Shown here: piece by piece, positions 1,488 through 59,620 of the stretch
Layout: every line of letters starts with the position of its first letter
Numbering within the stretch: the first letter of the stretch is position 1
Assembly (NCBI GenBank): GCA_010356995.1
Contig: ML996695.1
Location: 71,061-135,060 of the forward strand
Source of the DNA: Trichodelitschia bisporula
Lineage: Eukaryota
Reading direction: 5' to 3'
DNA: 64,000 nucleotides
The notes under the pieces: model-generated
Databases searched by the model: none
Seen by the model: only the letters and a program-made list of their open reading frames with translations
Told to the model about the DNA's origin: nothing
Program-made: the position numbers and the translations under genes

Positions 1488-2077
1488 AAGTGGAGAAGAG
1501 ATGCGCGGCATCGAACGGACTGGTTGATGACGGCCAAAGGCGTCTGCTTTATCAAGGAAGTCTACCTTAAGGTTACGCGTTTCTAGATGCTGTGAGTTTT
1601 GATTCGGGGTCCAAGTTTCTTCAATTTCTACTCGTTTCCGGTTGAAATTCACTCGCGGCATTATCATCGGAGGTCCTGATGCAGAGCTAATGTTGTGGCG
1701 CTGTGGTGGTTGGATGCGTGGGTTACTCAACCCGGGAAGGCTAGCGGCTCGGCCCGCTTCCCGCCGCCACTAGGTGCAGATGCGGAAGGGTATCATGACA
1801 TCACACATGGCACACCACACATCACAAATACAAATGCCTCGGTTCACTGATCCATTGACCTTAAGCTATCCATAGAGGACTGAACCTGGGACATGCACAC
1901 CATCTCCATAGCCCTTAAACGAAGATCATGGTAACCGAGTTTTTCCGCGGACTTTTAGCTTTTCATGTGTTTTTGCTGGAGGTTTAAACTTTTTGGTTCG
2001 AGTTAAGCCTGAAAGGACCTCTGAAGCCCGTTAGCGTCGCTCACATACCACAGGAGAAACTTACAACATACGACCTA

Positions 2078-2965: not shown

Positions 2966-3235
2966 ATCTTCTGATCTGGTTCAGCTTTATAATATCGATA
3001 TACCGGTTATACTGACCGAAAATGAACTGCGAAGTGAGAGTAGGAGGAAATATTGAAAGTTGGAGGGCTGAAGGCTAATGAAACTTTCGAAAACTGGGTA
3101 ACAATGCACGATTGTTGATGTTCGCGTTGCAAAGAGTTCATGAAAGCAAACTGGAACCTGATCTTTCCGACCATCCACACTGATTACCGGATACTCACTA
3201 GCTTAAAAATTGTTAAGCTCTTTCCCCCGCCGAAT

Positions 3236-3311
3236 AAGGCGGGTGCGACGGGGCGGGGGTGAGCGCCCGCCTTTTTTGGAAGCCCAGTGGGGGTGCCCGC
3301 CTTCTTGGAAG
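3236..3311. repeat. Cluster of inverted and direct repeats (CCCGCCTT core)
   Basis: AAGGCGGGTGC (3236-3246) is inverted relative to GCGCCCGCCTT (3263-3273). The unit GCCCGCCTT(T/C)TT(T)GGAAG is present twice, at ~3265 and ~3295. Confidence 0.6.
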
Positions 3312-4625
3312 TTAAGTGAGTGAGTGGCCCTCAACTTGCTGGCACTGGACTCATGGCCAAATCCTTCTCCATTCTTTTACCATGCTCTCCATCTTTCTCT
3401 TTTGCACAGTGTGCCCTCACCTTCACGCAAATCAACCACTGTCCAACTTCTCCTCCACGACACACTGCTATACCTTAACTCCTCACCATCGGTCACTAGC
3501 CTTGCCTACCTCCTCGATGAGATTCTGAAAAATCCAAACCATAAGGAGTGGCTCCATTATATTTACAACATTGGCGGCTAGCATGTTCCGGGTCCCGGGA
3601 CGGCTGAAACTCAGCCGCGTATGTGACCTATTATACACGTACAACATGTCAGCTCCAGTTTGAAAACGAGGGATGGAGTACTAACAGATGACAGATATCC
3701 CATTTCGCATTCGCAAACCCCTCGCTGGTGCTGTGTTTGCCAGCGAGACGGTTATAGTGTGAAATTACCTCACTCAAAACCCTATCACCAGTTGAGCGAT
3801 TTGCTGCGATGTCTCGGCAGCCTGATGATGGCGATGGCCATATACGACAGGGGGTCTCCGGAAGAGCAGCTGCGTCCGCCAGGACGGTTCGCGCAAACCT
3901 GGAGCTATACCGTCTTTCCATGGGGTACTCTATAAGGTAGGAAAAAGTCTATCTACACCTCCGGCGAAAGCGGGGAAAACATGTGCTTGTGTACCGACGT
4001 TCTAACACTGTCCAGACTATACCATTGGGGCTCGAGTCCATATTCTATATACTTCGAGCGGCTGTGCCAGCACAGCTTCGTCGAGCGTTGAGGCCTCGTC
4101 CAGCACTGAGAGGGCCTCGGACAAGACGACATATATAGCCCCCGCGGGCAGATCGCAGCGTCGAGGAGCGGCCCATCTCCCCTCAGATGGCCCTGCGCTT
4201 CGTGATCTTGTCGGTGCTTTGTTGCAGGCTCACAGTCATGACCGCCACCGCGCATGGTCAACGTACTAGTTCTGAGCATCTTCAAGAACATCACTGATGA
4301 CAACCTTTGAACTCTCGGCTTGGACCAAGCCTCGCCGGCTATAGCTCCATCGTGCATGATGAGTTCTGGTATCGACCCGAAAGGTAATACTGTCAGCCGC
4401 AATGGTTAGAGAGAAAGTTTTATTAACACCGGGAGCAGTACCACCACTGACAATGAATCACCTACGTTGGCTTCCGTCTTCACCCCTGCCGGGCTCTTAA
4501 GCTCTCATCGCATTATAACGACTCCCGCTCTATACTTTTCAATCCATCTTCGCAGTCCTCTGAAGCTGAAGTCGTTTGCCGTATACAAGCCAGACGTGGA
4601 GCAAGATGAGGCGCCCACTTCGACA

Positions 4626-4895
4626 AAGGCAGTCGACATCCTCGCCGGCCACCGCAGAAACTTCAGCTCCTCGAATCCAGTGCGCTGACTAGTGATCCCG
4701 GAGAACCTGAAAAAACTCAGCATGTATATGCTTACGCTGCTGAGGTGCCGTACCTTCCTGGGTGGTCGTGAACCTTCCGATCGCCGCATCCACGACGTGC
4801 GCCTCCTGCGTGCCATTGGTTCCGGCGAACTCTCCATTGACAAACCGCGCACCATCGCGCAACACGACTTGGCCGAAGGCGACGGCTTTGCCAAC
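4626..4895 (+). pseudogene. Sec24-family (COPII, SFB3/Sec24C-D-like) gene fragment
   Basis: Translates as VDILAGHRRNFSSSNPVR*LVIPENLKKLSMYMLTLLRCRTFLGGREPSDRRIHDVRLLRAIGSGELS...HDLAEGDGFAN, matching the recalled Sec24 helical-domain pattern (QLVLPENLK.FSMYML...K.RAF.GG.EPSDRR.HD.R). There is an in-frame TGA at 4686-4688 and the rest of the gene is absent. Confidence 0.7.
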
Positions 4896-5324
4896 ACTCG
4901 TGTCTCGTATATACACAAGTCAAAAGGTGGTGGCCCTGAACGCGCATATACCTCTCGCTCTATCTCCACGACGTCTTCTCAACATTCAAACAGTTCCTGA
5001 ACGATCTCGATGGCGGAATACTTCTATATATCTCGCCGCACCCCGTATATGCACAATCGCGACACCGCGCATCTCCGGCTCACGGCCTCTACGTTATACC
5101 TGGGCGTTCGGACCTACACCACTCGCGTATGCATTCCTCGCGCTTTGCAATCAAGCTTTCGGGCCAGGATTGGGCCGAATGCAAAGTCACTGCAGCTTCC
5201 ACGGGAGATATATACAAGAGAAGGAATCTCTGTATAGGCCGTGGAGGCTCTTTCGACCCCGCGTGGTCCTCCTCCTCATCTTGAGCACATTCGGGATCTT
5301 CTTTATAACATGTGCGCCACTCCA

Positions 5325-5430
5325 ACTGACATGAAGGTATACAAAGCCTCGCAGCATATGGTGGACGTTCACACTGGCGAGCTGAAAGGACCCGGAGCTT
5401 CTTTCTTCGGGATCAAACCTGAACGCGTCA
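5325..5430 (+). pseudogene. Possible DUF2458-like gene fragment
   Basis: TDMKVYKASQHMVDVHTGELKGPGASFFGIKPERV resembles the recalled fungal DUF2458 motif D.KVY.AS..M......EL..LG.PFF. The match is short and no full gene is present. Confidence 0.3.
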
Positions 5431-8400
5431 CTAAGACCCCCAGCAATGACCCGAACGACACCTAAGAGCGTTGTAGAGCGGAAAAAGTTCCCACCTTCTC
5501 CCCCGCAGTTCGCCGGCAAGCTCCCAAAGTTGGAGGAGCCAGTTATATGGGTAGGTGGAGCCGGATGGAGTCCCATATATTCAACGCTACAAGGCCTGGG
5601 TCCACTTCGGTTACAATATCGGCGGCTGGCTTGTTCCTGGTCTCGGGACGAATTACGGAGCGTATGCTCGGCCACGATCATGAGCGCAGTGAGGTAGTCA
5701 GCCAGATGTACCCGGCTCCCACGTAAGCTATACTTCGTCGTTCTCCGCGGATTGCTGGATCGGAACTTCCCTATACACGGACTCTCTCGCGGTGCGGAGC
5801 GCGCTTCTGCACCCGCAAGTCTGTTGTCACCTTGAAAGCAACTCCATCTGGCGGACAGATGCTTTTGATTATATACCAGGAATGCGGACTAATAGCGCTT
5901 CGCAAGGCTATATACGGCTCTGGCAGGCCTGGAAACCTTGCTGTCTTCCTCGTACTCAGCTGGAAGAAACTCCAATCTGGCTTATGGATGCGTACGACTC
6001 TCAGCTGGGGAACATTAACGAAGGAATGGAGACAAATGATACCTAGCGACTATACTATAAGCCCTGGGAGCTGCGCCCTGAAGACACGAACCAGATTGAA
6101 GAGCAGGTTGCCAGCGCCAAAGTCGAAATTGAGGCGGAACTCGCTGCCCTGGAGCAGCGCCGCACCGAACAGTCCAAGGCAAAGGAAAACAAGGCGCACA
6201 CGACCAACGTCGCGGCACTCCCCGATGACCTCGCGATGATGGCATGTAATGGGCACGCTGTCTCAGCAAACGGTATACCAGCAGGAGTCGGCATCCTTGA
6301 TCTTCCTGCTCAAACTACTAGCAAAAACGGCCATTCGGAAGAGTTCCTAACCTCAAGTGTTCAATATATCTCACTGGCGCCTGGGAGCGCAACAACCCAC
6401 TGGTGCTGTATAAGTACTCCGGTTTCGTATACTTAATTACGCTTCCATTTCCCACCATTTCTCGCGCACAGAAAAGTGCTTCAATACATTGACATGCCAT
6501 TCGTCCTAGCCGGCGTGGCCCTCCTGACCGCTCAGAGCTGTCCTCACCTCCTATACCACTCGGACCGTCGCCACTGCCATATATACGTCGGCTTGTTTCT
6601 CTTGGCTTCACCGTAGCCTTCCGCTTGATGATCATTTCGTCGATTATAGCGGCGTCATCGATTACGGGGGCGCTCTAGCGCCAACGCGGTCACCTTCTAT
6701 AAACTTCGGGCGGGCCAACGTCTTGCGTCGTATATATCGTCGCATTGCTGCGACCAGTATATATACCTGGCCTCAAAAAACAGGCTCAGCATTCAGCCAT
6801 AGCGAAGGCTCTCCTCATGCAGAAAAAGCCCTATTCGCTTGATACGGTTCCCAAGGTTGAGACGCGTTTGCGCCACCAAGTGCGCGATGACGACGAATAT
6901 ATACGGCCATCAAGCCTTCGGCAATGTGGCGGCGCCCACCGGGCAGACTCAGCTTCCAGTGCACAGCTTCATCGACTTCAATGAATAGTCCCCGGAGTTG
7001 GTCATGAGCACCAAACTCCGCCTCCGCATTCCGCCTCTCGTATAGATATACCGCGGTCCGGTCCCTAATCCAGGTCCGACCCAGCACCGCCGCTATCCGA
7101 GCGTATATTTCCGTATACATCGGAGGCCTAAGTGCACCGAAGTTCCTCAAAAACATTCGCAACACGAAGGAGCGGCGCGGGTGCCTGCCTCGAGAAGCCT
7201 TCCACGTCCGTAACTGCCTGCGATATACTTATATGACCGCCGGAGCAGCCGGGGGGGGCATTCCTTCAGCAGTCCCCCTATATACCGGGCCTCCCCGCCC
7301 AGCTCCTGTATATACATCTGATTTCTTCGAGCGGCCGACATCCATATACATGAAAGCAGCAGTACTGTTTCACAACAAAAGTATTGTCATCAAGGTGTTG
7401 TCAATCGCGCTCGCCATGGTCGCCATGAGTTTGCGCAATCCCTCGAGCAGTTGGCTAAGGCCAGGCAGATGGATGACGGCTTTGAGTTCGGCAGCATGAT
7501 TGACGCTTCTCAAATCGACGAAATTGCGGAAAAGTTTAATGCTTGTACGGTTGTTATATCAATGCCCCCCGAGGCAGCCGAAATCTCGCCTCACGACATC
7601 GGCATCACCTCCGCGCGGGAGAGGGGCGACCTCCGGAGCGAATGCAGCATTTTCATCTGAAATCAACGCTACCAGTTCAAGTTCGGTTACGATGAGTGGA
7701 CAATTCAACTTCCCACCTGCGTGAGCTCATCACTGTCGTCTCCGCTGAGGATTACCTCGTTATATTCGACTACTGTTCCCCAGTCTCCGAGCTTAACGAC
7801 AGCACCTCGGGGTCGCCTGTCCTATATTCGACGATCACAGCAAGGTCATCAACCGCGCCTCCCGTATAACTATATAGAGGCACCGCCGCCAGTCACCGGG
7901 CCGAGCATCACTACCATTTCTATCGCTATACCCTCCAAGTTGCGGTCGACCCCAGGTCACGCAAATGGTATATACCGGCCTTTGTACCGCGCATTGTACA
8001 CGTCAACTCCACCCTCCCCAGCATTTAAGACGTCACACGCCATCCTGCTTTTCGTTGGTCCTATATAGCGCAACTATATGCGCATTTCGTCGCTTGTATC
8101 CGGTGGTACCGGTACCGCGGAAGCGCTACTCTGCGATTCCGCTGTCGACGCCGGGGAGGCTATACATGTATATCACAAACATGTAGTTCACAAAGCTCAT
8201 CCTATTCGGTGGCACGGCCGCTCGCTTCATTGGCGCCTCCCGTATATACCGAAACTTTCAGTCCGTCCCGAATCTGCTTTCACCCGGCTCAAGGAGCGCA
8301 CATAGAAGATCGGGAACCCCGCCAACGATGCAGAAACCAAGAAGGATCCGGAGGGGAAGTGCACCTGGCGCCATACTACCATACACCAGGCTCAACCCGC

Positions 8401-8808
8401 GCGGCTCGCACCTTTTCGACCCGGAAATAGCGCCCTACCCTCGCGTCGCCTCTAGCGAACCCACTCTACCAGTTCCCAGCAGGCCTCGCGGCCCAATCTA
8501 CGGCCGGTATATCCCGCCCCTATACGCACTTCGTCCTTTCAGACGGCTCCTACCGCCTCGGGACAGACGGCGCCTCAGTTCACCCAGCCTGCTTCTCATC
8601 AGCACGGACGGTCAGCGCTACAGTACGGACAGTACATGGCGCAGCATGGACAACCGGCTGGTAGTCGCTTCGGCCTAACAGCGGCGCTATGTAGTGCGCA
8701 CATCTTCGACTTCCAATTCTTAGCGCGCGCGCTTTTGCGCTCCTGTCAACTCGGGCTCCACATTCTGCCAACTCTCCGAAGTCGCCCTGCCAGCCAGTGC
8801 ACTTCTTC

Positions 8809-9275
8809 GGCGTATACGACACTCCCGAGTCAACTAGCCCTCTCCCCGCCGCAAAGTGGGACGAGATCAATCTTCTATATAATGACTTCGCCCCGAGAGG
8901 CCGGCAACAGCAACAAAGCTCCTGCGAACACTGCCGCGACTGGTGATACAGAAATGCGCGACTGGTGCGCCGCATTCTCAAGCATTCCCGAGAGGAGTGT
9001 ATGTTCGTCGACGCTCCGGTAGGATTCTGTCGCTGCGGTACCGTTTATCCGAAGCTCCAGCTTGTCGCCACTTGCCCTTGCTCGATGGATTACGGTTTGG
9101 ATCATACTTCGAATCAAGCACCGGCTTAGACACCGGGAAAGAGCGCACGGTGCCTCGGAAAACGCCAGCAACAGCGCCACGACGGCTCCGGGCGCCTTGA
9201 ATGGTATATACCGTCCCTATACGCACCCCCGGGGCATATACAACCACCCTGGCCGACTAGCCCTCTCCCCGCTGC
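8809..9275 (+). repeat. Dispersed ~44-bp direct repeat pair
   Basis: Copies at 8809-8852 and 9233-9275 share an exact 17-mer, ACTAGCCCTCTCCCCGC (8833-8849 and 9256-9272). Most flanking mismatches are G/A or C/T transitions. Confidence 0.65.
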
Positions 9276-10864
9276 GAGCCGTCAGTGCCGGCTTATAAAA
9301 AGGACCAATGCACTTCCAGTCAACGGCCAAGATTTTCAACGCATACACGCTATTCTACCGACGCCGGTCGTCCCTTGACTCCGCTCAGCCGCCGGCTGTA
9401 TACTATATACTATATATCGGCAAGGCCCCAACGGCAAGCGCCCTAAGACCGGCTCCTGGCGCAACTATTCTGAGGTCTCTCAAGCGCGAGTATCTTTCGT
9501 CAAAGCGTGGTATTGAGACGCTCCGGCTCGCATGGCGCATTACGAACGCGGCCGCCGGCCCCGGTTATATAACCCGGTCTCATTTCAGTTCTTTATATAC
9601 TCCTGGTGGACAATCACCAAGTCCGTCGTCAGCGTTACGACCTCTCCGCCTGTCAGGAACTCCCGGTATATCTTCCGCTTCAATCAACATGATCGACACA
9701 ACGGACGCTCTCCCGGCCCCTTCTTTCCCTACGCAGCAGGGCAAGCGATCATTGCGCAAGAGATGGGTTATAGGACTTTGCGTTATCTACTTCTTCGGCA
9801 CGCACTTCTAGCTGCGGGCGCCGTCTCCGCCTGCTTTTCCCTGAATCGCCGCCGAAATCCCAGCTTCGCGCGTTATACATCTTTGGGCGCCGGCTCCGTC
9901 TCCCTACTACAACATCATCTCTCGTCGGCAATATAGCGGCAATATACGCGCCTCCAATTGCCGCGGCGAGGCTTCCGGCAGCATATCTCCATCTCTTACT
10001 CTTTTTATAACTTGACCGCGGCATGCTCCGCCCATCGCCGCACCGGGTGCACTCTCCACATCCATCCTCTGCACCCAAACCCTTCCTTTGCCATTCACCA
10101 AAAGAGGGTATATACCCATCCCCGCCTCTTCTCAAACGAGAGCGAAGTGCCGCAAGAAAGCACGTATACATGTGCATATACAACCCACAAAAACATGGGC
10201 ATGTACAACCATCCTCCCCCCCCCGCCGCAGCAGCAGCACCAGCGGTAGTATAGCGGTGCAGGGCCGGGGGGGGGGGGGGGGTTCGTGTGGTTGGAGCAA
10301 CGAACGACGTTGAAATGAAGGGTGCAGCGTCGCCCAAAGCGACTCACGAGCCCATCGATACCATCAAAGTGGCGCCACGGGCGTGGGCTCGGGACTGCGC
10401 CCTGGTACGACGCCACAGGGTGCGAAGGACAGTGAGCTCTGCGGAGTGGTTTACTATACGGATGGCAGCGGGGGCGGGGGGCGGGGAACAACAATGGCTT
10501 TACAGCAGCGACGCTGGGTGGGGGGTGATGGTGGGGGCGCAAGGCTGAGGACTTCGGAGGCGTATAATGGGAAAAGTGGAGAGTATATACCAGCCCCCGC
10601 TCACAGCGGACACCACTTACCGGATTAGAACTACATTGCGCTTCCGCAACAATGAAGGTCGATGGTGCGGTGCGTCCCACAGATACGAAAAGTACGCCGC
10701 CAAACTATTTTCTTTTCCTTTCTTCTTCTGACCATCACCAGCCTCTTCCAGGCCGCGGTGGCCTCGGGTGCAGTATATAGCAGACACGCGAACGGCGCTT
10801 AGATAGAACAAAGAAGAAACACCAATCTATTTCTACGGTACAACCCATACAAATCTAATCTGAT

Positions 10865-12142
10865 CTACAACTCCTTCCCCTCCTTCTGCCCCGCCACACT
10901 CGCCTCCCGCGCCCTAGCCTTCCTCTCCTTCTCCACCTTTTCACGGCGATTCATAATACCCTCCGCGCCCACCCCGCCAAACACAAGCCCAACCCCCAGC
11001 CACTGCATCCGGCTAATCGAGTGCCCGAACCACAGCACGCTGACAACCATAGTCAACATCTTGCGCGTCACGGTGACAGTGACGAGGAGCAGGCTTGAGA
11101 ACACCTGCAGCGTGTGGAATATGAACACCTGCCCGACGGCACCGCACGCCGCGAACCCGAGCACATCCCACCCGACACTGGGATGAGCGCGGATGAACGC
11201 GAGCGCGTCGCGCAGTTCGGTGGCGTTGATGCCTAGATACCCCGTCAAAGCCGGGGGGGCGAAGGGTGCGAGGAGCAGGAATGACGTGGTCAGCGCGGTG
11301 GAGAGCAGGTTCTGCGCGCACATCATCTGCGGGCCGGAGTACGGGCGAAAGCTTGTAAAGATCTGGTCCTGCGTGCTGTTGGTCAGGCCATCGAACAGCA
11401 GATTAACGCCGAGGAGAAAGAGTCCCCAGCCCGGACTCGCAGCTGCCTGCTTGGAGCCGTGTTTCGCGGCCTTAGACGCGGTGGAGGGATGGTGCAGGGT
11501 GAAGACCGCGACGCCGAGCGTCACCAGCGCAACGACGGCGTATTTGTACAAGCTGTAGCGCTTGCGGAAGAGCGTTACGTGTAGGAACATCACCGGGAGC
11601 AACTTGCACGACTTGGCAAGGATGAAAGTGATGTAGTCGATATGCTCGAGCGCCGCGTAGCCAAACGGCGACGCAAGCGAGCTGGTGAGGCTGATGAGCA
11701 GTAGCGGGGCCAGGATGCGGCGGGACGGGAATATAGGCGCCGGGCCGCGGCGGTGCGGGTGCGAGGTCGTGAGGAGGAGGTAGGCGAGGCCGCTGACGGC
11801 GGCGAAGGCGGATTGTACTGTGTTTAGGAAGACGGCGTGGGTGAAGCGGGAGCCGCGGTGGCCGTAGGGTGTTGTTGTTATGCGCTCTTGGAGGACGGCC
11901 CAGGTTAGGCTGGGGGGTTAGTTGGGATCTGCTGGCTGGGGGGGGGGGACGTACAAGGAGGCGTAGATGCCGCCGACGCAGAAGACGAGACTTCCGAAGC
12001 CGGCTTCGGCTTTTGGTGTGGGAGCTGTGGGTGCCGGGCGCGGCGCGTGCGGCGCGGGCTTGATATCGTGGACGATGCCATTGGATTGCATGACCAGGTC
12101 GGAGGGGGTGCGGTAGACGGCGGTGGGCTTTGTTCGGGCCAT
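10865..12142 (-). CDS. HUT1: UDP-galactose transporter homolog 1 (UAA family, SLC35B1-like)
   Basis: Spliced motifs CVGGIYASFLTWAVLQERI, LAKSCKLLPVMFLH, NLLFDGLTNSTQD and TVTVTRKMLTM. Intron at 11910-11954. Confidence 0.93.
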
Positions 12143-13352
12143 GGTTGAGGTAGGGACTGTGGGGAGGGAGATGGGGAGTGAGAGAGTGTGTCAGCGTGAC
12201 ATCAAGAAGCGGCCGTGGAGGTGAGGGAGTTGATGAGAGGTGGCACCCATTGGGCGCTAACCGCATGCGGGAGAATGCGTTCAGCCTCGATGTGGCGTCG
12301 AGGCGGAGATGTGGCTGGTTGCGGAGAAGGATGTCACGGGATCATGACAGCGCTTTGAGTGGTGGGGTTGCTTTGACGTCTCCATTGTAGTGTTGAACAA
12401 GATCTAAGCTCTCCAACGCCGTATGACTGAAGTACAAACGTAGAACAATATACACACGTGACGTAAACTACCTGCGCAGTCAAAAAGACGAGATGCAAGG
12501 CGCTGCGATGCGATGCGATGCCAGCGGGGTTGTTGCAAAGGATCAACAGATATGCGATGCGACGGGACGGGATGGAATGGGATGGGAGCTGGTGAAGAGA
12601 AGAAATGAAGCAGAAGAAGTAAGTACAGCGTACATGCAGCATGCACGGTATATGTGTGCAGCGACCAGCAGGAGCGTCAGTGAGAGAGAGTGAGAAGGAC
12701 TGGTCGGCCGTGGAGAGAGAAGCGACACCAAGACACAAGCGAACGAAATGCACCTGCAGTTGCCTGCACCACCCGCTTTCCCCCCTCCCCTCCCCCTCAC
12801 CTCCTCCCTTCGCTCTCGCCTCTCTTCTCCTCTCCTCCCACTTCTCTTTCTCGCTTCGTTCGCCTCTCATCGCCTCTTCTCTCTTCCACTCTCAATTCCC
12901 CCACCTGCACCAAGCGATCCAAGAACTACCCAATCGCAGGCCACTCGCTCTTCCCTCCCCCTCACTCCAACCAACCACTCACACCCCCCACCCACCACCA
13001 GCACCCCCGCAGCGAAAAACCAGCTAAAACCCCCCCAACCTAGACGCACCACCCAAACCTCCTCCACCTTTCAACCTCTTTCTTCCCACACAACAACAAC
13101 AACCCTTCACCCTCCTCTCCCCTTCACCCTCTTCGCTCCTCTACTTCTGCTCCCTCCTCCTCCTCTTCCTCCTCCTCCTCCCCTCGTCACCCCGCCTCTC
13201 CCCTCAATTCCATCCCCCCGCCGCTTTCGCCCACAAAGCGCGCAATTCCAGACCCCTCCTCCCATCATCCCTCTCCCCACCTTGCACTTTCTCCACCTCC
13301 ACCTACAACCCCCACCACACCCCGCTACCTCAATCAACACCAAACAGTCATC

Positions 13353-14467
13353 ATGTCTGACGAGGCCAACATCGACGACCTTCCGTCCTTCAACCGTCTC
13401 AATGTCGCTGACGACGACGCTCCCCTCCGTACCGATGAGGAGTACGCGCAGGAGCAGCTCACTCTCCGCGCCATCGTCTCCTCCAAGGAAGCCGGCGTGA
13501 TCATCGGCAAGGCCGGTAAGAATGTCGCCGACTTGCGCGACGAGACGGGCGTGCGTGCTGGCGTCAGCAAGGTTGTGCCTGGCGTGCATGACCGCGTTCT
13601 GACCGTCACCGGCGGGCTTGCGGGCATCTCCAAGGCCTACCGCATTGTGGCCAAGGGCCTGCTGGAAGGTGCTCCGCAGATGGGTATGGGTGGACTGGTG
13701 CATCCCACCAACACGCATCGTATGTTATTTCTTACTGATCAATCGGGTCTGGCCTAATGATGCTAGCTGTGCGCCTTCTTATCTCTCACAATCAGATGGG
13801 CACTATCATCGGTCGTCAGGGACTCAAGATCAAGCAGATCCAGGACGTGTCCGGCGTGCGCATGGTAGCGCAGAAGGAGATGCTGCCGCAGTCGACGGAG
13901 CGCATCGTCGAGGTCCAGGGCACGCCCGAGGGCATCGAAAAGGCCATCTGGGAGATTGGCAAGTGCCTGATCGACGACGTGGAACGTGGCTACGGCACCG
14001 TCCTCTACAATCCTGCTGTGCGCGTCCCGTCCGGCAGCGGCGGCTCGCCGCCCACCAACGGCAACGGTAACAGCGCTAGCACCCCGCGCCCCTTCACGCG
14101 CACGGGCCACGGTACCGACTTCAACGAGTCGCCGCCGAGCTACCGCCGCAACAACAACGGCAACAACGATTCGGCTCCGCGCCCGCCGCCGCCGACTCAC
14201 ACGGAGGACGGCGAAGAGATCCAGACTCAGAACATCAGCATCCCCTCGGACATGGTGGGCTGCATCATCGGTCGCGGCGGCAGCAAGATCTCGGAGATCC
14301 GCAAGTCGTCGGGCGCGCGCATCAGCATCGCCAAGGCGCCGCACGATGAGTCTGGCGAGCGTATGTTCACCATCACCGGCACGGCGGGGAGCAACGAGAA
14401 GGCCCTGTACCTGCTGTACGAGAACTTGGAGGCGGAGAAGATGCGGCGGCAGAACTCGACGGAGTAG
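13353..14467 (+). CDS. rnc1: Three-KH-domain RNA-binding protein (Rnc1/Hek2(Khd1)/Pbp2 family)
   Basis: Three KH GxxG motifs: GVIIGKAG, GTIIGRQG and GCIIGRGG. Intron at 13720-13766 restores THPVRLLISH. Confidence 0.92.
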
Positions 14468-49409: not shown

Positions 49410-50312
49410 GCTTCTATCAAGGGACTGGGACCACTCCACGCTTCACGCACGCGGAATTGTGGAAAGGGGAAACGGTCGGACGGATTGAGGTGGGAAACGT
49501 GCTGATGCCACGCATTGTGGGCAAAGGGGGCAGGACACGAGGTAGCATTCTCAGCATCACATGTCTGAATGCGGAGGACATGTCGTGGCATGTGATGGAC
49601 GCCCGCCGTCTCTACCCGCCCCTGTCATCCCTGCTTCCGCCCCGCTGTGGCACGTGCGGCTGCCCCGCCAGATATCCGAGTAGGGCTGACTTGCCGGATT
49701 GGGACGCACTATGAAGGAGATAGTGGAGCTTTGGTATTTAAGCATAAAGAAGCGAGCGGAAAGCTGTTGGGTTTGCGGGTGATGTTGGGGACGGACCGCA
49801 CCTGGTACCGTAATGGTGTTTTGGCGTGGCGGATGCTCCCGAGGGGTTGTCCAGCGAACAGTCCTCCTCGAGGTGAACTCTGCCTCTGACCATAATTGCA
49901 TGTGTTCCTCCTCTTGTCCGGCACTAGCTCTAAAATAGATGAACGTTGCGCAGATCCCCGTCTGCTACGCCACAGCCTTATCTTGGGATTTTCCCTGACG
50001 AACGTCAGTTCAGGCTCTGAGATTAGGAACCCCGAGGCACGAATCTGACGGCCTCACAAAGACTACCACAAAGACAACACGCTCCATTCAGCAAACAATG
50101 TGCTTCATTTTTCCATTGTGACCTAGTCTTTGGCGGGGTAGTGCCCCGCGGCTCCGTAGCCAATAGGCCCACCACCCGTAGCCCAGCAGTCACGCTGCCA
50201 CGTCATGGCTGCCCAACTTGATATTCCGCAACGGCCTTCCCAAAAACCCCCTCCCCATCCCTCCACACCTTCAAACCCACATCCAAAACTTTCCCTCACA
50301 GCCTAATCCACC

Positions 50313-50984
50313 ATGGCCCCCTCCGCCTTTCCCCACGCCCCAGCAGACGACATCGACCTCCTCCTCTCCGGCCTAACAACCTTCCACCTCGACATCCCCA
50401 AACCCGCCCCCGAACCCACCGCCTCCCCCCCTCAAAGCATCTACACCTCCACCCCCCTCTCCCCCACCGCCCCCGAACTCCGCCTCCTAATCCTGCACCC
50501 TGGCTCCCCACCCACAGCTCCGCGCTGCACCTTCACGCGCACCTACCTAACCTGGCCCATAACTTACACGCTCCTCCACCGCGCCCGTCTTGCACGCGAA
50601 ACCCACGCGCTCGCACCAAAAACCCTCGTCCCCATCACCATCGAGCGAACCACAACCCTCATCCCCTCAGACCTGCTGGGGGCACTCACAACCCTGCGCC
50701 AGCCCGACCGGCCGGTCCCCCTCTTCGTCCCCGAGATATGCGTGAACTGGGCGGATGCGCGCGAGGCCGAGGAGGCGCAGTGGGCGGAGGGCGAGGTATA
50801 TCGGCGCGCCGGACGGGTGGCGGTGTGGTTGGATGAGGGGCAGTGGGAGGGGGGGGATGTTTGTCTAGAGGTTAGTTATCGCGCGCCGGATGCGCGGGTT
50901 GTGGTTTGGGTGGGGGGGGTGGGGTGGTTGGATGTAAGGGTGCCGGAGGGTGGGGGGTTGGATGGGGATGCGATGGTGCAGTAA
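50313..50984 (+). CDS. Stand-alone, degenerate HET (heterokaryon incompatibility) domain protein
   Basis: IYTSTPLS...ELRLLILHPG...LLGALTTLRQPDRPVPLFVPEICVNWADAREAEEAQWAEGEVYRRAGRVAVWL follows the HET pattern (Y..L..EIRLL.L.PG; L..AL..LR; LWIDAICINQ.D..E...QV..M..IY..A..V.VWL), with core residues substituted. Confidence 0.7.
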   Translation: MAPSAFPHAPADDIDLLLSGLTTFHLDIPKPAPEPTASPPQSIYTSTPLSPTAPELRLLILHPGSPPTAPRCTFTRTYLTWPITYTLLHRARLARETHALAPKTLVPITIERTTTLIPSDLLGALTTLRQPDRPVPLFVPEICVNWADAREAEEAQWAEGEVYRRAGRVAVWLDEGQWEGGDVCLEVSYRAPDARVVVWVGGVGWLDVRVPEGGGLDGDAMVQ

Positions 50985-51110: not shown

Positions 51111-52576
51111 CTACTTTTCAAACACCGCCTCCATCGCCTCGCCCAGTATCCGCATCCCCTCCTCCACCTCCCGCTCGCTAATCACCAGCGGCGGCACAAA
51201 CCGCAGTGTATCCTTCCCGCACGTAATAATCAGCAACCCCCTCTCCCTTGCCGCATTAACAATAGGCGTCGGATCCGCGTTCAACTGCAACCCAAGCAAC
51301 AACCCGCGGCCCCGCACCTCGCCCACCTGCTCAGGGAACCTCTTCTGCAACTCCTCCATCGCCGCCCGGAGCTGCGCGCCCCGCTCCGCGACCGCAGCCG
51401 CCATTTCCGGCGCCGCCAGCCGCTGCACAATGTGATGCGCCACCGCGCACGCGAGCGGGTTGCCCCCGAACGTCGTCCCGTGGTCACCTGTCGCGATGAG
51501 GCTGGATACGCGCTCCGTGACAATCGTCGCGCCGATGGGCACGCCGTTGCCCAGCGCCTTGGCCGTGGTGATCATATCCGGGTGCGCAGAGGCGGGGAGC
51601 GCGGCATGCGCCCAGAACTCGCCGGTCCGGCCGAGGCCACACTGGATCTCGTCGTGGATGAGCAGAGCTCCCACCTCGCGGCAGCGCCTCGCAAGGGCGG
51701 TTAGGAACTCCGGGGTCGCGACGTTGACGCCGCCCTCACCCTGGATGGGCTCAACAATGACACCGCACGTCTTCTCCGTCACAAGGTGCGGGATCGCATC
51801 GATGTCATTGAGGTCGCCGTAGTGGAACCCCGGGACCATAGGCGAGAACGGCTGCTGGTATTTCGGGTTCGGCGTCGCGGACAGCGAGCCCATCGTACGG
51901 CCGTGGAAGGAATTGCGGAAACTGACGACTTCGTGCTTTGCGCCGGACGGGTCGGCGAGTTTGCCCGCTTTGCGCGCGAATTTGAGTGCCGCTTCGTTGG
52001 CTTCCGAGCCGCTGTTGCAGATGAACACGCGGCTCACGCCCTCCATGCCGCCAGCTTCGCGCGTCTTTTCTACTAGCAGCTTGGACAGGGCGCCTGTCCA
52101 GGGGTTGTGATACAGATTCGAGGTGTGCAGGATGGTGTTCGCCTACGCGATTAGCCTCTGCCTTAGCGGTCGTGCTCGCGTAGCACTCACCTGTTGGTAG
52201 ATCAGATCTGCAATCTGTGGATCGCTATGTCCTAGCGCTGTCACCGCTATCCCCGCTGTGAAGTCCAGATATGCGCGCCCGTCTGCGTCTTCCACGTGGC
52301 AGCCCGAGCCGCGCACAAACATGGGCGGTGGCCGCACGTACGTCGGCACCATGTAACGGAGCTGTTCATCGACAAGGCGCGCGGTGCGGGAGTCAGGTGT
52401 AGGATCGGGATTCGGGACTTTGGCACTCTGTGATTGTTAACCCATGCTCAATGCTTCGCGGATGCGCACACCTTTGTCGCGGTCGTCCGCCCGGCCGCTG
52501 CAGCGGCACCGGACGCGTAGCGGCGCGAGGCGCGCGAGAGAGCGCCCAATTGGCGCAGAGGGAGGCGGAGGGCCAT
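51111..52576 (-). CDS. ARG8: Mitochondrial acetylornithine aminotransferase
   Basis: Arg/Ser-rich presequence; YLDFTAGIAVTALGH; NSGSEANEAALKFARK; SFHGRTMGSLS; VEPIQGEGG; DEIQCGLGRTG; PLP lysine in TAKALGNG; HGTTFGGNP. Two introns. Confidence 0.96.
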
Positions 52577-52697: not shown

Positions 52698-52953
52698 GCC
52701 TGGGTCAGCCTTGTTTCGTCATCCCGCTACTCGAATTTTCAGACTGGGGGTATCTGCGGGGATGGAGGGGCATGTCGACCGATCCACTCTGCATTATCAC
52801 GACATGAGTGCATTCGAGTACATCCGTGGAAGAAAACTTTCGTCACATAAACTCGATTCTTCAATGGGTATCTCAAGATCACTAGTCCTCCCATACATAC
52901 CAAATGCCGATGAAAGATCGAAACTGTACATGGACAACGTCCTACACAAAATC

Positions 52954-55900
52954 TTACCGCCAAAAATCACCAGTCGACTGTATCCCCTTCAGGCCTGAAC
53001 TCGAGCTAGCGCGCGACATGGGCCGGCTCTCGCTCCGATCAAAGTGTTCAACAAAGGAGCCCAAGAGCATCTTGTAGATATTACCATCCGCTGGCTCCGT
53101 GTCGACGATGTCCCTAACATGTTAGAGCTACTCTCAGCGAGAGCCGCAGACTTACGGTATGCCTTTCAGCTTCACCAATTCATCGTCCAGCCTCTTCAGC
53201 CGCTGGGTAGCTTCCAAATCGTTCCCGAATTGGATGAACTGGATGCTGAATGACCGGTCCTCGTGGCCTCCTGAGACCCCCATCAACCACTTAATGAACA
53301 CCTGAATCTTCTCTTCCACATCTTCCTTCACTTCCGTCCCCTTCCATACACCATCAGTGAGGATGATCAGTGTCGTGCGCTTCGGAGGCTTTCTGAATCT
53401 TGAGGAGTTCTGGTACTCGCCGAAGATGTTGCCCAGCGCTGCTTTGATGTCCGTGTACACCAAATCCTGGGGTTTAGCCCTCCTCATGGCGTTCTTAAAC
53501 CACCCATGCCAGTTGTGATTTGATACCGTCTCACTACTGTTTGTGAAAACTAGGTCCATGCCGTCCTTATCGAGCCCCACTGCCAACTGCGCCAGAATAT
53601 CGATCAATTCTGTCGCTTTGTCCCAATGCTCGGTCATAGTAGACCCGTTGTCCACCAGAAATTTCTGCGCCAAATCAGAGTCGTCGCCTTCAGTGTCGTT
53701 TATGAACTTACAATATCTCGCTCCTTGAAGTGCTGCTTCAAAAAGACATCCGGCTTGTTGAAGAAAGGTACTTTCACCTTTTTGCGCAACTGAAGCCGAG
53801 CTTCTTCCACAGTCATCTTACGAACGGTAAGTGCGAGTGAGATCGAAGAAGATGTGGGCGGCTTGTCAGGTGATGTAGGCGGCGTCAAGAAATTGATACT
53901 CAGATTCGAAACCTCTCGGCTCGGGACTTCCTCACCAGACGTCGGGCTTTCTTCGCGTGTGTACTCAATCACAGGCGCAGAGGTCTGTCGAACTGGGGTT
54001 GCCGGTAGCGAGTCTAGCGGTGGGTACTCGGATTCTGCTATCCGCAGGCTCTGGAGATATTCAGAGCGGCCGATGGTCTGCATCGAAGGGATAAACTGGC
54101 GGCTCTCCTCACGCGAGAGATCGACCGAGGAGTGGAGACCACGCTGTTTCTCATACGGTACTTTCAGGCTGAGCGGCCGCGTCTTGGCTTGGTAGCAACT
54201 AGTCCCGTTTGCCGCGACAGTATCGTATTCGAGCAACGCCTCGGCCACGCTCGCAGAAATGACTGGCACGTCGTCCAAGTTGTCCATCTTCTTCTTAGCG
54301 CCGCTGAGAATGTCATCCAAAGCCACCACCAGGTCTTTGGCGTGGATCCGGTCGTCCGGAACACTGACGAGCATGTATCTATCGACAAGGTCCAGAACCT
54401 GGCCCGTGATCTCGTCAGTGCGCCGCATCGATTGCCGCAAGAATATGTGCCACTCTTTGATTTCTGGCAGCACAGATATCCCGTTGTGGAATCCATCGAT
54501 GCACAGATTGTCGTTGGCCTTGCCAGATTGAAGCTTTCGTAGCTTTTGTATCTTTTCAATGGCCAGACTTCGTAGTGTCTCAAACTGGTTGATCCCTTGG
54601 AACCCAAGGACAATCCACGTCGCTGCTACGGAGAAGACGCACCCAAGTGACCATACGTCGATTCCTTGATGCACTACTTTGTTTAGAGTTTGCCGAGGCT
54701 CGCTCCACTCCGGAGCGCCTAGGAAGTTAGATAGTTCGATGAGAAAATGGATGGCTTACTGTAGGTGTTGATGGCTTTTTCAATTGCCGTCAAAGGTGCA
54801 ACCCCTGAGTCTGCTTCGGGCTTAGATCGTGATAGCCGAGAGGGCATGAATTTGAACTTGAACTGCACATGCGCAATATGTGTCGGGTTGATTTCGGCAT
54901 GCCACCTAAACTTTCAGCGACGTTCAAGCTTGCTACTGAGACATACCCATTGTAGTACTCGAAGCCTCCACTAGAGTGATCATGTTTGGCGAACAGGTGG
55001 AGCCCCTTCAGCGCCTCTGCGAGACCGAATATTTTGCCCCAGAAATCGACTAGTTCGCGCGGTAACACAGGTGGCACATACTCGGTAAAGCACTCATCGA
55101 GATGCATGTCTGAGTATTCAAACACAATGTTGTATGTCCTTGGCGCTGTGCGGTCCTTGAAACGTGGTGATGTAGGGCTGGCGTCTGACGGCAGCTCTTC
55201 TTCGTAGTGGCAGATGTATTGCACGAGATGCTTTGATGTCGTGGTTGAAACCAGACCGCAAAAGTTCTGGAAAGCCTTGCGCTCTTGGTCGAAAACCTCG
55301 TAATCTCGCCCCTCATACGTCTTGAGCGCAAACGCATAGCACTACAGCAGTCAGTAGGAGGAGTAGATACCGAAATGTTCCATACCGGTCCAAACTTCTC
55401 GTGGTATATCTTCGAGCTCGCGATGAGGTTGCCGTTTTGCGCCTTACTCAGTCTGTGACCGATGAAATCTTCCTGGACCAGTATCCGAAATAGCTGCACT
55501 CCATCTTCCGTTCTAATCCATTCCCGCTCACAGATGGGCATAATGCGCTGCATCTCACTGCCGGGTTTCTGCTTGGACCTCACAATTTCGCCAAGGTCAA
55601 AGCTGACGGGACAGAACCGCGACTGCTCCTCGACGAAGCTCCTGGCTATTTCGTCCCCGCCTCGAATCCTGTTGTCATCGAGAATGGATAGAATGTGAGG
55701 TGTCGTCATCGGGAGGTAAAAGTCGAAGCCCTGCTTGCTCTGCCAGAAGTGGCCGATGAGGTGGCCATGGTTGATGTTGAGCAGGATGCAGAAGATGAGC
55801 AAACAGCATTTGTCGCCCATCGTGATATGGGCGGCGGTTACAGGTATAACCGGTCTTCCTTGCCGCTTGCTGTGCGCCGCTTGGAGGAGCTTCTCCGCAT

Positions 55901-56069
55901 TGGTGATGCGCCGTCCATTGTGCTCAACCGGCTCGCGGAGCCAAGAGCGCAGCTTCTCGGTGAGCACGAAGGGTTGGCGACCGACGGGTCTCACGGTGAA
56001 ATCTTTATCTAGCTTGTGACGGAATGCGCCGATGTCATCGTTGTCGTCGCGATACGACCTGTCGGTCAT
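52954..56069 (-). CDS. Pseudokinase (protein kinase-like fold) fused to a C-terminal von Willebrand factor A domain
   Basis: Five canonical introns preserve the frame. Kinase landmarks: FALKTY, DQERKAF, YNIVFEY, GWHAEINPTHI, TYSAPE, IDVWSLGCVFS. vWA landmarks: KFLVDNGSTM, DKDGMDLVFT, LIILTDGVW, SIQFIQFGND, PDIVDTE, KMLLGS. An alternative upstream ATG lies at 56111. Confidence 0.85.
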
Positions 56070-56874
56070 GAGCGGCCCGGCCCGCTGGAGGACTCGGGGT
56101 TGCGGTTGCATCGAAAGCAGTTAGCGGGAAAACCCGAGGAGAGCTGCTGTAAAGAGGTGGGAGATTGAGCGCAAAACTAGAAAGAGAATGGGCATTCAAA
56201 GCGCGACGTTGAAACTAAAGAACAGTAGGTGGGGCGGTTCATCTCCAGCTCATGCGGCTCTGACCAGCGCAGACATCTCCCCCGCTGCCCCAACCCCTCG
56301 CGGAGGAGGGATTGGGCTGACCAATACCAAGCAACTCTGCCTTGGTCCATCACCAGGGAGAGATGATGAGATGCGTGGAGCCAATGGGCGGTAAGGCTGG
56401 CCCGGGAGGGCCATCGAGTCATCCCGCAGACAGTTCCGTCACCAGAAATCAGGCTGAGCCCGCAGTGACCGCAGCTCCGGGGCAACCAATTAGTTGGGTC
56501 AGGTGCCACATGTTCGATGCGTTGTTGCGTGTCTTCATCACATCGGAAAGCAGCGGAGAATTTTCATGAGTTGGACATCCGGTCGACATGAGGCCGGTGA
56601 AGCTGCAAAGATGTTCCTCATGGCCGCGTACTTGGCACCCCCACACTCTGCCCTCGCTTCTTCCCGTCCGCTAACGCCCCACTATGGTCCCGATTTAGCT
56701 CGGCGTTAGCCTCGCTTTCAAACGTCACTACTGCATGGGAAAGGCACCCACTCGTTCGCATCGCCCATCTCTGACAAGATCGCAAGAGGCAGCCAACGCC
56801 GCGTCAAGTCAGCCCTTCTCTTATATACAGGCCAAACCGTCCCGGACCGGTATACGCGGAGAAGGGCCATCATC

Positions 56875-58761
56875 CTACCGAAACTTGACCGCATCTCCGG
56901 GCTCCTGGAACGCGCCCGGGAACTTCTCTGGATTCCCTTGCTCCACGGAATCCTGCGTGTTCCGCCGCTGCTTACGCTTTGCATATAGCAGTCCAAAGCA
57001 TCCTGCTGATAAAGAAAGAAAAATGAGTGGAATGGCCACTGCAAACCACATTTGCAGGGCGAGCCGGGAGAAGGAACCACTCCCATCAACTGGTTGGTAT
57101 CGAACAACGTCGGTGCTGAAGAATGTCTACCGTTATTAGCTTTGTACTGCAATCACAGATGCCCACTTACCGAGACAAATGTTGCAGGCAGGAATATCAA
57201 AACTACGATGGCGACGACTCGCATAAGCAGCGACTCTTTCTGCGATGAAGGACCCATCTTGTGCGTCTCGCCAGCAAGACGCAAACTGCTCTGAGTCAAG
57301 CGCTCGATTCTCTCCGTGGCTTGACTTTGAAGGTGTTGCAGCACCTGCTCGCTTAGCATTCACGATGACGTCTACGGGAAACAACATACCAGCCTTTTGC
57401 CGTCCGCGATCTGGGTCGCAAGGAGCTGCGCCCGCTTAATCTGGACGTTCAAGTCGTGCGCCACATCATTGACCTGCGCCGCAAACGAGCGCACGTCGTT
57501 GTATGCACCCTGACCAAGAGACACGTCTCTGTTCCCAAGCAGTCCTTCATAGAAACTGCGCAGCGACGACATGACGTCGACATTGGACTCCAGGACCATG
57601 CCGATCTCTTTCGTTCGGTCCTCGTAGAACTGGAGATTTTGCAGGTTGTCGGTCGTATAGTTCCGGACATTTCTCCGTCCACGGAATTCGGCGCTGGTGT
57701 TGCCCAGACGAATCTGTCTCTTTAGCTGGAGCTGGATGGACCGTTGAACCAAACATACCTCCTGGTGGACAAGCCCCTCGATCCACTGGATGTACCAACG
57801 CCACTCCCCAGCTGCCCACTGACAGCAGAGCAAGTGCGTCGACAAGCTCGTTCTGAAGCAATCACCCAGGGTGGAAAAGGCTTTGGGGTCCTTATTCAGA
57901 AGCTCACCGGCCATTTCCTTCACCAGGTCCTGGACGTCATGCTGGCTTTCCGTCACGATCCACACGGCAGTCCCTTCCAGCACATCGAACTGGTGGTGGA
58001 AGGCCGCTTGCCGAATGTTCCATTGTCTCGCTTCCGCAGGCACCTCCGGGCCATCCTCCGGCGTCACCTCACCCACCGACTTGAGATTGTAGCAGAGTTG
58101 GTATTGGCAGCCGCTCCGGCCAAAGCCGGGTATGCTGAGTGCACGTTCCGGCGGAGCAAGGAGCACCTGTTCGCGGAAACCGCTGACCCTGAGATCCTGA
58201 AACTCATTCTGCGAGCCAAATACCAGGACGAAGTCGAGATAGGATGGCATCACCTGATGGTAGGTGAAGATCCGTGTCATCATTTTTCGTGTGATCTCCA
58301 ACGGGCTCTGGGAGTCCCTCGCGCCGATCAGACTGCCCACATTAGCAGGGAGAATGGCAGCAGTATGGCGGCTTACACAAAGCGGCATTTCGGATCTCGT
58401 TTTGTCGCCGGCTCGCCAACAGATCCTCTCCTATCCAGGGCGGCGCCGGATTCGTCTCCTAACCAGTCCTTGAGATAATCGTCGCTGCGAATGTTGTATT
58501 TCTCCAGCTCTATGAGATGTCAGACTGCGAGCATCGTATCCCATCTGACATACCTTCGCCATGTTGTCCACGAAAGTCCCTGAACAGGACTTCAGTATCC
58601 AGTTCATCTTCGCTGAAGATTCGGAACTCCGCGTCATCCAGGCGCTTTGCATATGTCCGCAGGGCACCTGCATAGGTTCCTTTGTGAATGAGATTTGTGG
58701 GGTACTCCTCAAAGTTGTAAAGCGAGTCGCTGAAAGCGCTCGGTATCTTCCTCGTAGCCAT
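56875..58761 (-). CDS. Fungal CorA-like protein (large soluble N-domain, coiled stalk, two C-terminal TM helices; no GMN motif)
   Basis: Six exons with canonical introns. Motifs RDPKCRFV, IFTYHQVMPSYLDFVLVFG, YQLCYNLKSV and WNIRQAAFHHQFD. TM1 MRVVAIVVLIFLPATFVSTFFSTDVV; TM2 MWFAVAIPLIFLSLSAGCFGLLY, followed by a basic cluster. Confidence 0.82.
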
Positions 58762-59620
58762 TGGAACGCCCATTGGAATGCAGGTAGACGAGATGAATGA
58801 TGGCTATGCAATGCATTCCGGTCAAAGCCGAAGCCAGCATACTTAAGGCTCGCCCCAAATATCGCATTGCATGATCTTCTCTCCGAGTACCCGTGGCACA
58901 GGCATAGACAGCCACGCGGAGGTGTACATGTCCAGTGCGGCGTGGCTCCAATGGGCGTAAGGCTGCGATTGACGCCTTGGCGCATCTAAGACGAGGCGAC
59001 AGAGCGGCCCCAACTCACAGCATAAATACACTCTCCTCCGTCTCGGTTGGGCTGGTTTTACAGCCTGGATTGACAAGTGGGGCAGCGTGAGTGTTGGCCG
59101 TTGCGGAACGTTGCATGCAGACGTAAACATTGCTGAATGGCAGCGAGTTCTGTGTTGATACGACGAGAAAGGGAATTGTTGGCAGCCGGGTGGTGTGCTA
59201 ATGCACGGCACGATGATGAACTGGCCAATGCCTGTTGTGCCGGAGAATATCTAGCTTTGGCGTTAGTTGGTTGGTACAATTCGGCTTATATGCGCTGTCT
59301 TCAACTCGTGAACATCTTGCTGTCTGCATTTTGACCGGGCATGCAATGAGCGGGGTTTGTTTTAAACTCGTGGTCCCATGGAGACCTGAAGTTGATAGCC
59401 TGTGACTGCAGGTCATGATCTAGAGCCCGATGAGAAGGAACTGCAACATGCTAAGATGATCTCTAGCAAGACTGGCAGTCGACAAGAATGGGCGCGAGCA
59501 TCTCGACGCCGTCGGGGCAAGGAAGGGACAGATCATAATTCATTGGTATCCAACCGTCCGCGCCTTTGTACCACCTCGCTGGACAACACAACCGCAGAGT
59601 GCACGGCCATTCCTCTCCCT

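Follow-up and report, generated by a model that had tools for sequence, protein, structure and literature searches.

CorA channels are recognised by a GMN signature at the end of their first transmembrane (TM) helix, and in the 'chanzymes' TRPM6 and TRPM7 a TRP-type cation channel is fused with an alpha-kinase in one polypeptide. In filamentous fungi, conserved pairs of non-metabolic genes are uncommon. A CorA-family membrane effector activated by S-adenosylmethionine-AMP (SAM-AMP) belongs to type III CRISPR systems, as reported in two papers (PMC12255297, PMC10600005), and a third describes kinase-vWA fusions of grasses, such as wheat Lr9 (WTK6-vWA), which have at least three origins and are tied to immunity (PMC10260399). 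In Morchella importuna, the gene mimpvic32, which encodes a CorA-like protein (PF01544) of 765-773 amino acids, is reported to be polymorphic between incompatible strains (PMC8940278). Here, we describe a 64,000-nucleotide stretch (the window) of the genome of Trichodelitschia bisporula (Dothideomycetes, Phaeotrichales), in which a gene for a CorA-like membrane protein (gene B) and a gene for a kinase-vWA protein (gene A) occupy positions 52954-58761 of the minus strand, from the start codon of gene B (58761) to the stop codon of gene A (52954). Comparison with related sequences suggests that this interval is a conserved two-gene cassette of filamentous ascomycetes, of which T. bisporula would hold a kinase-dead version. 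The interval comprises:

56875..58761, minus strand: gene B, CorA-like membrane protein of 554 amino acids, 6-exon model (exons 58761-58554, 58509-58377, 58332-57759, 57713-57390, 57344-57171 and 57126-56875)
56112..56874, minus strand: spacer of 763 nucleotides from the stop codon of gene B to the start codon of gene A, covered without gap by transcript-like contigs
52954..56111, minus strand: gene A, N-domain, kinase-like domain, linker and vWA-like domain, 980 amino acids, 6-exon model (exons 56111-55386, 55341-54947, 54905-54760, 54718-53712, 53664-53156 and 53113-52954)

The gene A model is identical, letter for letter, to the T. bisporula protein KAF2400193.1 (EJ06DRAFT_420275, hereafter P0017). 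The annotated gene B protein of this species was not among the matches of a search that was restricted to proteins of 551-2000 amino acids. Ten introns of 41-47 nucleotides with GT..AG borders, five in each gene, are precisely the intervals absent from contigs of two sequencing runs of one sample, whose run type could be given as RNA only by guess. The contigs are considered to be similar to complementary DNA (cDNA) because every intron has been removed, which points to expression of both genes. A 45-nucleotide in-frame intron of gene B (57758-57714), which could not be called from the reading frame alone, was confirmed in this way. One contig of 5770 nucleotides spans 52773-58979, spacer included, which is no proof of a single transcript, and contig depth gives no ranking of expression. 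Two intact multi-intron genes on the minus strand had been proposed in the initial annotation made from the DNA letters, and the models of 554 and 980 amino acids, with ten introns skipped in the contigs, agree with it. No further copy of either gene was found within the window.

The two genes were found adjacent, or joined in one fused gene model, in nine further genomes or contigs (ten with T. bisporula). Both partners carry consecutive accessions in all three species from which both were retrieved, namely Peltula sp. (KAI9776787/KAI9776788, locus tags M1816_005081/005082, on one 11.8-kb contig), Venturia nashicola (TID14704/TID14705) and Xylariaceae sp. FL1019 (KAI1260870/KAI1260871, on the same 440,902-bp contig). 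When 188 proteins were searched with a hidden Markov model of the CorA-like family, four entries of the kinase family, from three species, started with a truncated CorA-like part; these were P0068 and P0168 from two strains of Colletotrichum fructicola, P0072 from C. siamense and P0175 from Variospora sp. The fused models omit the TM region and have the gene order of the window, and other annotations in the same 90% cluster give separate CorA-like and kinase-vWA proteins. They are probably neighbouring genes merged by annotation error. These GenBank entries bear misleading names such as 'MPS1-like' and 'mph1'.

A scan of metagenomes returned 13 loci, six of them with relatives of the kinase-vWA type and three of these with at least 3 kb of upstream sequence. 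Each of these three informative contigs has a CorA-like gene immediately upstream in the same orientation, at a distance of about 1.05-1.35 kb, versus 0.76 kb in the window. An all-versus-all comparison of the open reading frames (ORFs) of the window and of these three loci gave, beyond the pair itself, only a generic ankyrin match in common, as if the cassette moved as a unit. Order and orientation are kept across several classes of Pezizomycotina while the surroundings change, which is strong evidence for functional coupling. The pair had been put forward earlier as a functional module, and recurrent linkage was indeed recovered in 3/3 species, in the three species with fused models and in 3/3 metagenome contigs. 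Among the distant kinases that lack a vWA domain (loci L007-L013), a CorA-like gene was absent from both loci with more than 8 kb upstream; the other contigs are too short for a judgement. One of these short contigs, L008, has a weak CorA-like TM piece at 243-536 (E 8e-6) upstream of a distant kinase at 2287-3501 on the plus strand (about 22% identity), and the association may extend beyond the vWA-bearing subfamily.

For the paired taxa, the trees of gene A and gene B are in agreement. In each of them the closest relative of T. bisporula is Peltula, Xylariaceae sp. FL1019 groups with Colletotrichum in both, and Venturia groups with Chaetothyriales in both. The kinase family consists of a DFG clade and a DPG clade, the latter with Pro in place of Phe after the metal-binding Asp, and these match the two main clades of the tree. 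The pair is present in both, which places the association before the split of the two clades. T. bisporula has long branches, of 1.33 versus a median of 0.81 in the kinase tree and 0.98 versus 0.46 in the CorA-like tree. In the kinase tree, approximately unbiased (AU) tests rejected monophyly for the three Dothideomycetes members (p 4e-5) and also for the three Chaetothyriales members (p 1e-4), both groups having been chosen after the tree was seen. Judged by its tree, the kinase-vWA family is no simple single-copy core orthologue, a possibility considered in the initial annotation.

Within gene A, the following elements were recognised:

55542..56033, minus strand: N-domain, about residues 27-190, family-conserved, of no known family
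54306..55529, minus strand: protein-kinase-like domain, about residues 195-560, three introns inside, catalytically degenerate
54872..54904, minus strand: catalytic loop WHAEINPTHIA, degenerate
54833..54856, minus strand: DFG segment FKFMPSRL, degenerate
53062..53717, minus strand: vWA-like domain, about residues 757-945, one intron inside, VWA match below threshold

An exhaustive search with exon 4 retrieved 1150 representative proteins at E<=1e-3, of which 520 passed E<=1e-10, and a family alignment was built from 22 full-length relatives (927-1101 amino acids) together with P0017. All 23 members are built alike: a conserved N-domain of some 160 residues is followed by the kinase domain, then by a low-complexity linker that varies between members, and lastly by the vWA-like domain at the C-terminus. 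Among solved structures the family profile matches TTK/Mps1 at E 4e-15 and next the cyclin-dependent kinases (CDKs), which explains the 'MPS1-like' labels in GenBank. The Pfam Pkinase model is matched at E<=0.01 by 22 of the 23 members, T. bisporula being the sole exception; P0017 reaches 14.7 bits (cut-off 31.7), with an E-value of 0.02 for the C-lobe.

The catalytic loop reads WH[AGCS]D[IVL]KP[DES]NIL in the 22 homologues without exception, and carries the replacements D378E, K380N and N383H in T. bisporula. Likewise, the DFG region is FKLAD[FP]GF in the family, and the Asp of D[FP]G, found in 22/22 homologues, is absent from T. bisporula, where the glycine loop also reads EDGV versus GGTA in the family. 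The beta-3 Lys (K249), the alpha-C Glu (E262) and the APE motif (A424-P425-E426) are retained. Positions identical in at least 20 of the 22 homologues were defined as family-conserved (n=126). T. bisporula differs at 17 of them, and all 17 fall in the ATP-binding and catalytic motifs of the kinase between residues 203 and 423: in the glycine loop (203, 205), the segment 316-322, the catalytic loop (378-385), the DFG region (393-401) and the activation segment (417-423). The identity of T. bisporula to its closest clade, divided by the identity within that clade, is 0.48 for the catalytic segment and 0.94 for the C-lobe, 0.94 for the vWA-like domain and 0.80 for the N-domain. On the evidence of these motifs, the kinase-dead state is specific to T. 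bisporula among the 23 members. The initial annotation had made the pseudokinase a feature of the whole system, which does not fit the catalytic loop and D[FP]G motif kept by 22/22 homologues.

Catalytic motifs destroyed in this manner, along with the long terminal branches of both genes and the change of 12 out of 82 family-conserved positions in gene B, could denote a decaying relic, in which the kinase is dead, both genes drift towards loss and the local features, namely the pseudokinase, the low GC and the long branches, have no function. We regard such a relic as very improbable. The 980 and 554 codons have stayed open and the ten introns are spliced despite terminal branches of about one change per site. 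The changes in gene A are confined to active-site motifs of the kinase (17/17), its vWA-like domain and C-lobe standing at 94% of the usual identity, and most of those in gene B are conservative exchanges (V/I, S/T), with the TM-loop motif intact. As far as its sequence can tell, gene A encodes a true pseudokinase and is not a dying gene: its 980 codons still form an open frame and its transcript is spliced despite a terminal branch of about 1.3 changes per site, so that selection would have maintained the protein while catalysis was abandoned. The strongest reason to think that binding matters is that a kinase-dead copy has kept its N-domain, C-lobe and vWA-like domain.

The metal ion-dependent adhesion site (MIDAS) of vWA domains is made of DxSxS, a Thr and an Asp after beta-4. 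D763, T767, T829 and D862 are present in gene A, where the first Ser of DxSxS is Gly; across the family it is mostly Ala or Gly. T. bisporula retains the usual state of the family here, with D-N-x-x-[ST]-M, T829 and D862 all in place. P0017 matches the VWA model at 15.6-17 bits (E 0.02; cut-off 23.8), and a vWA-TerF-like match was obtained for 1/23 members. A search of the PDB with the single sequence of the vWA exon gave chance-level matches only, and when a profile made from five sequences of the vWA part is aligned with a solved vWA domain, its beta-1 Asp, Thr and LTDG Asp fall in register. The C-terminal domain of gene A is a probable vWA domain. For the N-domain (residues 1-195), no Pfam family was matched besides DUF2905 at chance level, and comparison with the Atlas gave feature scores of at most 0.76, structure TM-scores of at most 0.36 and no known family. 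The linker contains a basic motif at about residues 640-665 of P0017 (about 53990-54070 of the window, minus strand), with near-invariant R640 and P661 followed by …KT.HRSE.L.S, which could be a docking or localisation signal.

The main exon of gene B (314 amino acids, read across the small intron) matches 16 proteins of 553-755 amino acids from many ascomycete classes (E 8e-75 to 1e-39, 28-46% identity). All 16 are assigned to PF26616 ('CorA-like transporter domain'), a membership that is precomputed, the local Pfam scan having given a PF26616 match for no protein; the exon pieces of gene B gave no PF01544 match in the Pfam scan. Eleven homologues, 35-46% identical to the main exon piece, were aligned, and the C-terminal region of gene B was read as follows:

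57171..57224, minus strand: TM helix 1, MRVVAIVVLIFLPATFVS, from the translation
57109..57126, minus strand: motif TFFSTD at the position of the CorA GMN, from alignment and translation
56983..57045, minus strand: TM helix 2, then a basic KRKQRR tail, from translation and alignment

The hydrophobic segments cover residues 454-475 and 499-519 and are separated by a loop of 23 residues, an arrangement common to 11/11 homologues. In the family alignment (11 homologues and the window pieces), TM helix 1 ends with …YLPATFVS. The motif TFFSTD is present in T. bisporula and nine of the 11 homologues, the remaining two having TFFGTD and TIMSTD, and none of the 12 sequences carries GMN. The family profile reaches TM1 of Thermotoga CorA weakly, at E 0.32. 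A predicted Atlas model of the homologue P0003 (predicted local distance difference test, pLDDT, 0.77) aligns to a bacterial CorA cluster over 311 residues, with TM-scores of 0.66 by target and 0.46 by query. The protein of gene B is predicted to consist of a large cytoplasmic domain, a stalk and, at the C-terminus, a pair of TM helices, with an FSTD-type motif in place of the GMN filter. In the deposited CorA-like protein of Peltula sp. (P0002), the conserved block is replaced by unrelated residues at columns ~261-300 and 480-520 of the 11-homologue alignment, and an insert is kept at the position of the small in-frame intron; this model probably contains retained introns or frame errors.

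By this alignment the absence of GMN is a fixed state of the fungal PF26616 subfamily and not a loss in the T. bisporula gene; the initial annotation had listed it as lost, and 0/12 family sequences carry it. The broader claim that both proteins have lost canonical residues is true as a description of each, with the qualification that the missing GMN and the D-x-x-x-S/T form of the vWA domain are family norms and that the decay of the kinase is the only species-specific part.

Conservation of order, orientation and spacing (0.76-1.35 kb), as well as the cover of the spacer by transcript-like contigs, would also be expected from mere co-regulation, in which the genes share chromatin or a promoter and serve one process, for instance cation homeostasis, while the proteins make no contact. 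CorA relatives are cation channels by the names of the PDB matches, which fits such a process, whereas the GMN cation filter is found in 0/12 sequences. Moreover, a kinase-dead copy was kept with its N-domain, C-lobe and vWA-like domain intact, which indicates that non-catalytic binding functions matter, and vWA domains are generally protein-binding modules. Co-regulation without contact is, to our mind, decidedly unlikely.

We favour, as moderately probable, that the kinase-vWA protein binds the CorA-like oligomer and either gates it or is switched by it. The kinase-vWA protein, a soluble one, would use its vWA domain and/or its N-domain to dock on the cytoplasmic portion of the CorA-like oligomer; once docked, it would gate the oligomer, or the oligomer would switch the kinase-vWA protein. 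In most species phosphorylation would be involved. In T. bisporula binding alone would operate, with the pseudokinase as a scaffold or switch, since the replacements there are restricted to ATP-binding and catalytic residues. From the sequences, we infer the physical contact, the direction of signalling, the channel or pore activity and the biological role of the pair, which could lie in ion or stress signalling or in regulated cell death.

Several points weigh against binding and gating as proposed. The census covers ten genomes or contigs drawn from search hits, two of them from close Colletotrichum species, and is small; it took in no count of kinase-vWA genes that lack a CorA-like neighbour. 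In the three species with both partners, adjacency was read from consecutive accessions or locus tags only, with orientation unseen. Comparison of the two families with hhalign gave a probability of 0.1% and no shared docking or interaction motif. For gene B, PF01544 scores in the six homologues scanned (6/6) are 14.1-26.3 bits, below the gathering threshold of 27, so that its putative CorA fold rests on sub-threshold Pfam matches and on the predicted model of a homologue. For gene A, VWA is matched at E<=0.01 in 7/23 members, the best at 22.6 bits and all below the gathering threshold of 23.8; a solved vWA domain provides the three best PDB matches of a profile made from five sequences of the vWA part, at a non-significant E of 0.11. 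Finally, in a leave-one-out count of changed conserved positions, T. bisporula (18/127) is not unique, P0185 having 23 and P0152 having 14. What is distinctive in T. bisporula is the placement of the changes and not their number.

The genes that surround the pair are:

flank: ARG8-like aminotransferase class III gene (Pfam E 2e-97)
flank: ankyrin gene coding for a small protein (E 6e-16)
flank: TAFII28/TAF11 gene (E 1e-9)
50307-50984, plus strand: HET-like ORF, 21.8 bits versus a cut-off of 22.5 (E 2.7e-4)

These Pfam matches agree with the placement of the pair between ARG8 and the ankyrin/TAF11 genes in the initial annotation. The degenerate HET gene that it reported about 2 kb away corresponds to an HET-like ORF at that place, the score of which stays below the cut-off; the usual motifs of this ORF look degenerate, and it lies 2 kb from gene A, beyond the ARG8-like gene. 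An intron was seen at 52428-52471 in the ARG8-like gene too. All introns seen measure 41-47 nucleotides and are cleanly spliced, and the introns of T. bisporula appear uniformly very short.

A lower GC content of the pair was likewise confirmed: the coding sequences have 0.533 (gene A) and 0.552 (gene B) versus 0.61-0.65 in the flanking genes, and GC at third codon positions (GC3) is 0.65-0.66 versus 0.82 in the large ARG8 exon. This dip is real yet modest, and values just as low occur in the first ~8 kb of the window. There, a second low-GC stretch extends over 1-10700 (0.50-0.58 in 1-kb bins up to 11 kb, and 0.50-0.57 up to 8 kb); none of the 20 scanned stop-to-stop ORFs of at least 130 amino acids had a Pfam match at E<=1e-3, and the first recognisable gene past it encodes a UAA/nucleotide-sugar transporter (10868-11917, minus strand). 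For the low-GC stretch, an origin by repeat-induced point mutation (RIP) was rejected because the RIP indices are normal, and a transposon origin because flanking repeats of more than 25 nucleotides were not found. In one of the three metagenome loci (L004), the strand opposite to the pair carries an NLR-like gene with an NPHP3_N P-loop and ankyrin repeats (11981-14305, minus strand), located 2.7-5.5 kb downstream of the pair.

Some of these features would fit an immune-like, non-self cell-death system, the reading given in the initial annotation, in which the (pseudo)kinase-vWA protein would sense and the CorA-like protein would be the membrane-permeabilising executioner. The family behaves as accessory genes, with monophyly of the Dothideomycetes and Chaetothyriales members rejected in the kinase tree; the flanks are unconserved, GC3 is below that of the neighbouring genes, and the T. 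bisporula branches are long in both trees. The HET-like ORF is 2 kb off, and the NLR-like neighbour adds to this picture, although in fungal genomes one such gene in three loci could be expected by chance. The cited papers provide precedents, with CorA-family membrane effectors in type III CRISPR defence (PMC12255297, PMC10600005), kinase-vWA fusions in wheat immunity (Lr9; PMC10260399) and a polymorphic CorA-like candidate for vegetative incompatibility in Morchella importuna (PMC8940278). The Morchella gene is, however, a mapping candidate only and may lie outside the subfamily. HET, NACHT/NB-ARC, patatin, HeLo and gasdermin domains were found in neither protein nor in the 25+23 homologues scanned, and HET, NACHT/NB-ARC or repeat sensor domains in none of P0017, 25 kinase-family and six CorA-like homologues. 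The N-domain does not match cell-death domains, PADLOC matched homologues of gene A with generic Ser/Thr-kinase models only and gave no match for three CorA-like proteins, and the pseudokinase state, which is the core of the analogy to MLKL/ZED1, is limited to one species. Such an immune role is, overall, doubtful.

Returning to a kinase-vWA protein that binds and gates a CorA-like oligomer, the pairing points to an undescribed two-protein module. Each domain appears to be of a known kind, and the conserved pairing is what seems to be new; no description of it was found in the literature searched, which did not cover subscription journals, and the literature search returned no paper on PF26616. 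The pair would give a first functional handle on the large fungus-specific PF26616 family and on the kinase-vWA family mislabelled 'MPS1-like' or 'mph1', and it raises the prospect of a channel or pore under kinase control, a proposal within reach of ordinary genetics. T. bisporula may be viewed as a natural separation-of-function allele, with catalysis lost and the scaffold kept. A bolder extension, which we think unlikely, is a regulated pore, in which the kinase-vWA sensor would open a GMN-less CorA-fold pentamer and thereby depolarise or kill the cell. If true, it would be a fungal counterpart of the type III CRISPR sensor with its CorA effector and of necroptosis controlled by a kinase or pseudokinase, and T. 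bisporula would hold a naturally kinase-dead, binding-only version.

Compared with described systems, gene B is closest to the CorA/MIT Mg2+ channels, homopentamers that conduct divalent cations and are typified by CorA of Thermotoga maritima (PF01544), with the same predicted layout of cytoplasmic N-terminal domain, helical stalk and two C-terminal TM helices. TM1 of CorA aligns with that of the gene B family (…LPxTF…), and the homologue model superposes on bacterial CorA. In contrast, GMN is found in CorA and an FSTD-type motif in all 12 fungal sequences, Pfam scores stay below the gathering threshold, and the N-terminal domain of gene B is the fungus-specific PF26616.

Animal and plant MLKL and the fungal HeLo/HELL-kinase proteins resemble the pair in coupling a (pseudo)kinase to a membrane executioner, and the T. 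bisporula protein is itself an apparent pseudokinase. These proteins have their own N-terminal four-helix bundle, whereas a separate CorA-like gene is present here; the N-domain of gene A matches no HeLo/4HB family, and the 22 homologues all look catalytically competent. The channel-kinase coupling of TRPM6/TRPM7 is an analogy only, both parts being unrelated to those of the fungal pair.

Wheat Lr9 (WTK6-vWA) has, like gene A, a kinase followed by a C-terminal vWA domain. It is of independent origin and of the receptor-like-kinase type, no CorA-like partner is reported for it (PMC10260399), and no Vwaint domain was detected in the fungal family. The product of mimpvic32 is also a CorA-like protein of Pezizomycotina, but the gene is a candidate from bulk-segregant analysis, and the other candidate of that study lacks any recognised domain (PMC8940278). 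In type III CRISPR (PMC12255297, PMC10600005), a CorA-fold membrane protein stands beside, and is controlled by, a cytoplasmic sensor or signal generator, which is the likeness to the fungal pair; the CRISPR system is prokaryotic and nucleotide-activated, whereas the fungal partner is a protein kinase-vWA protein.

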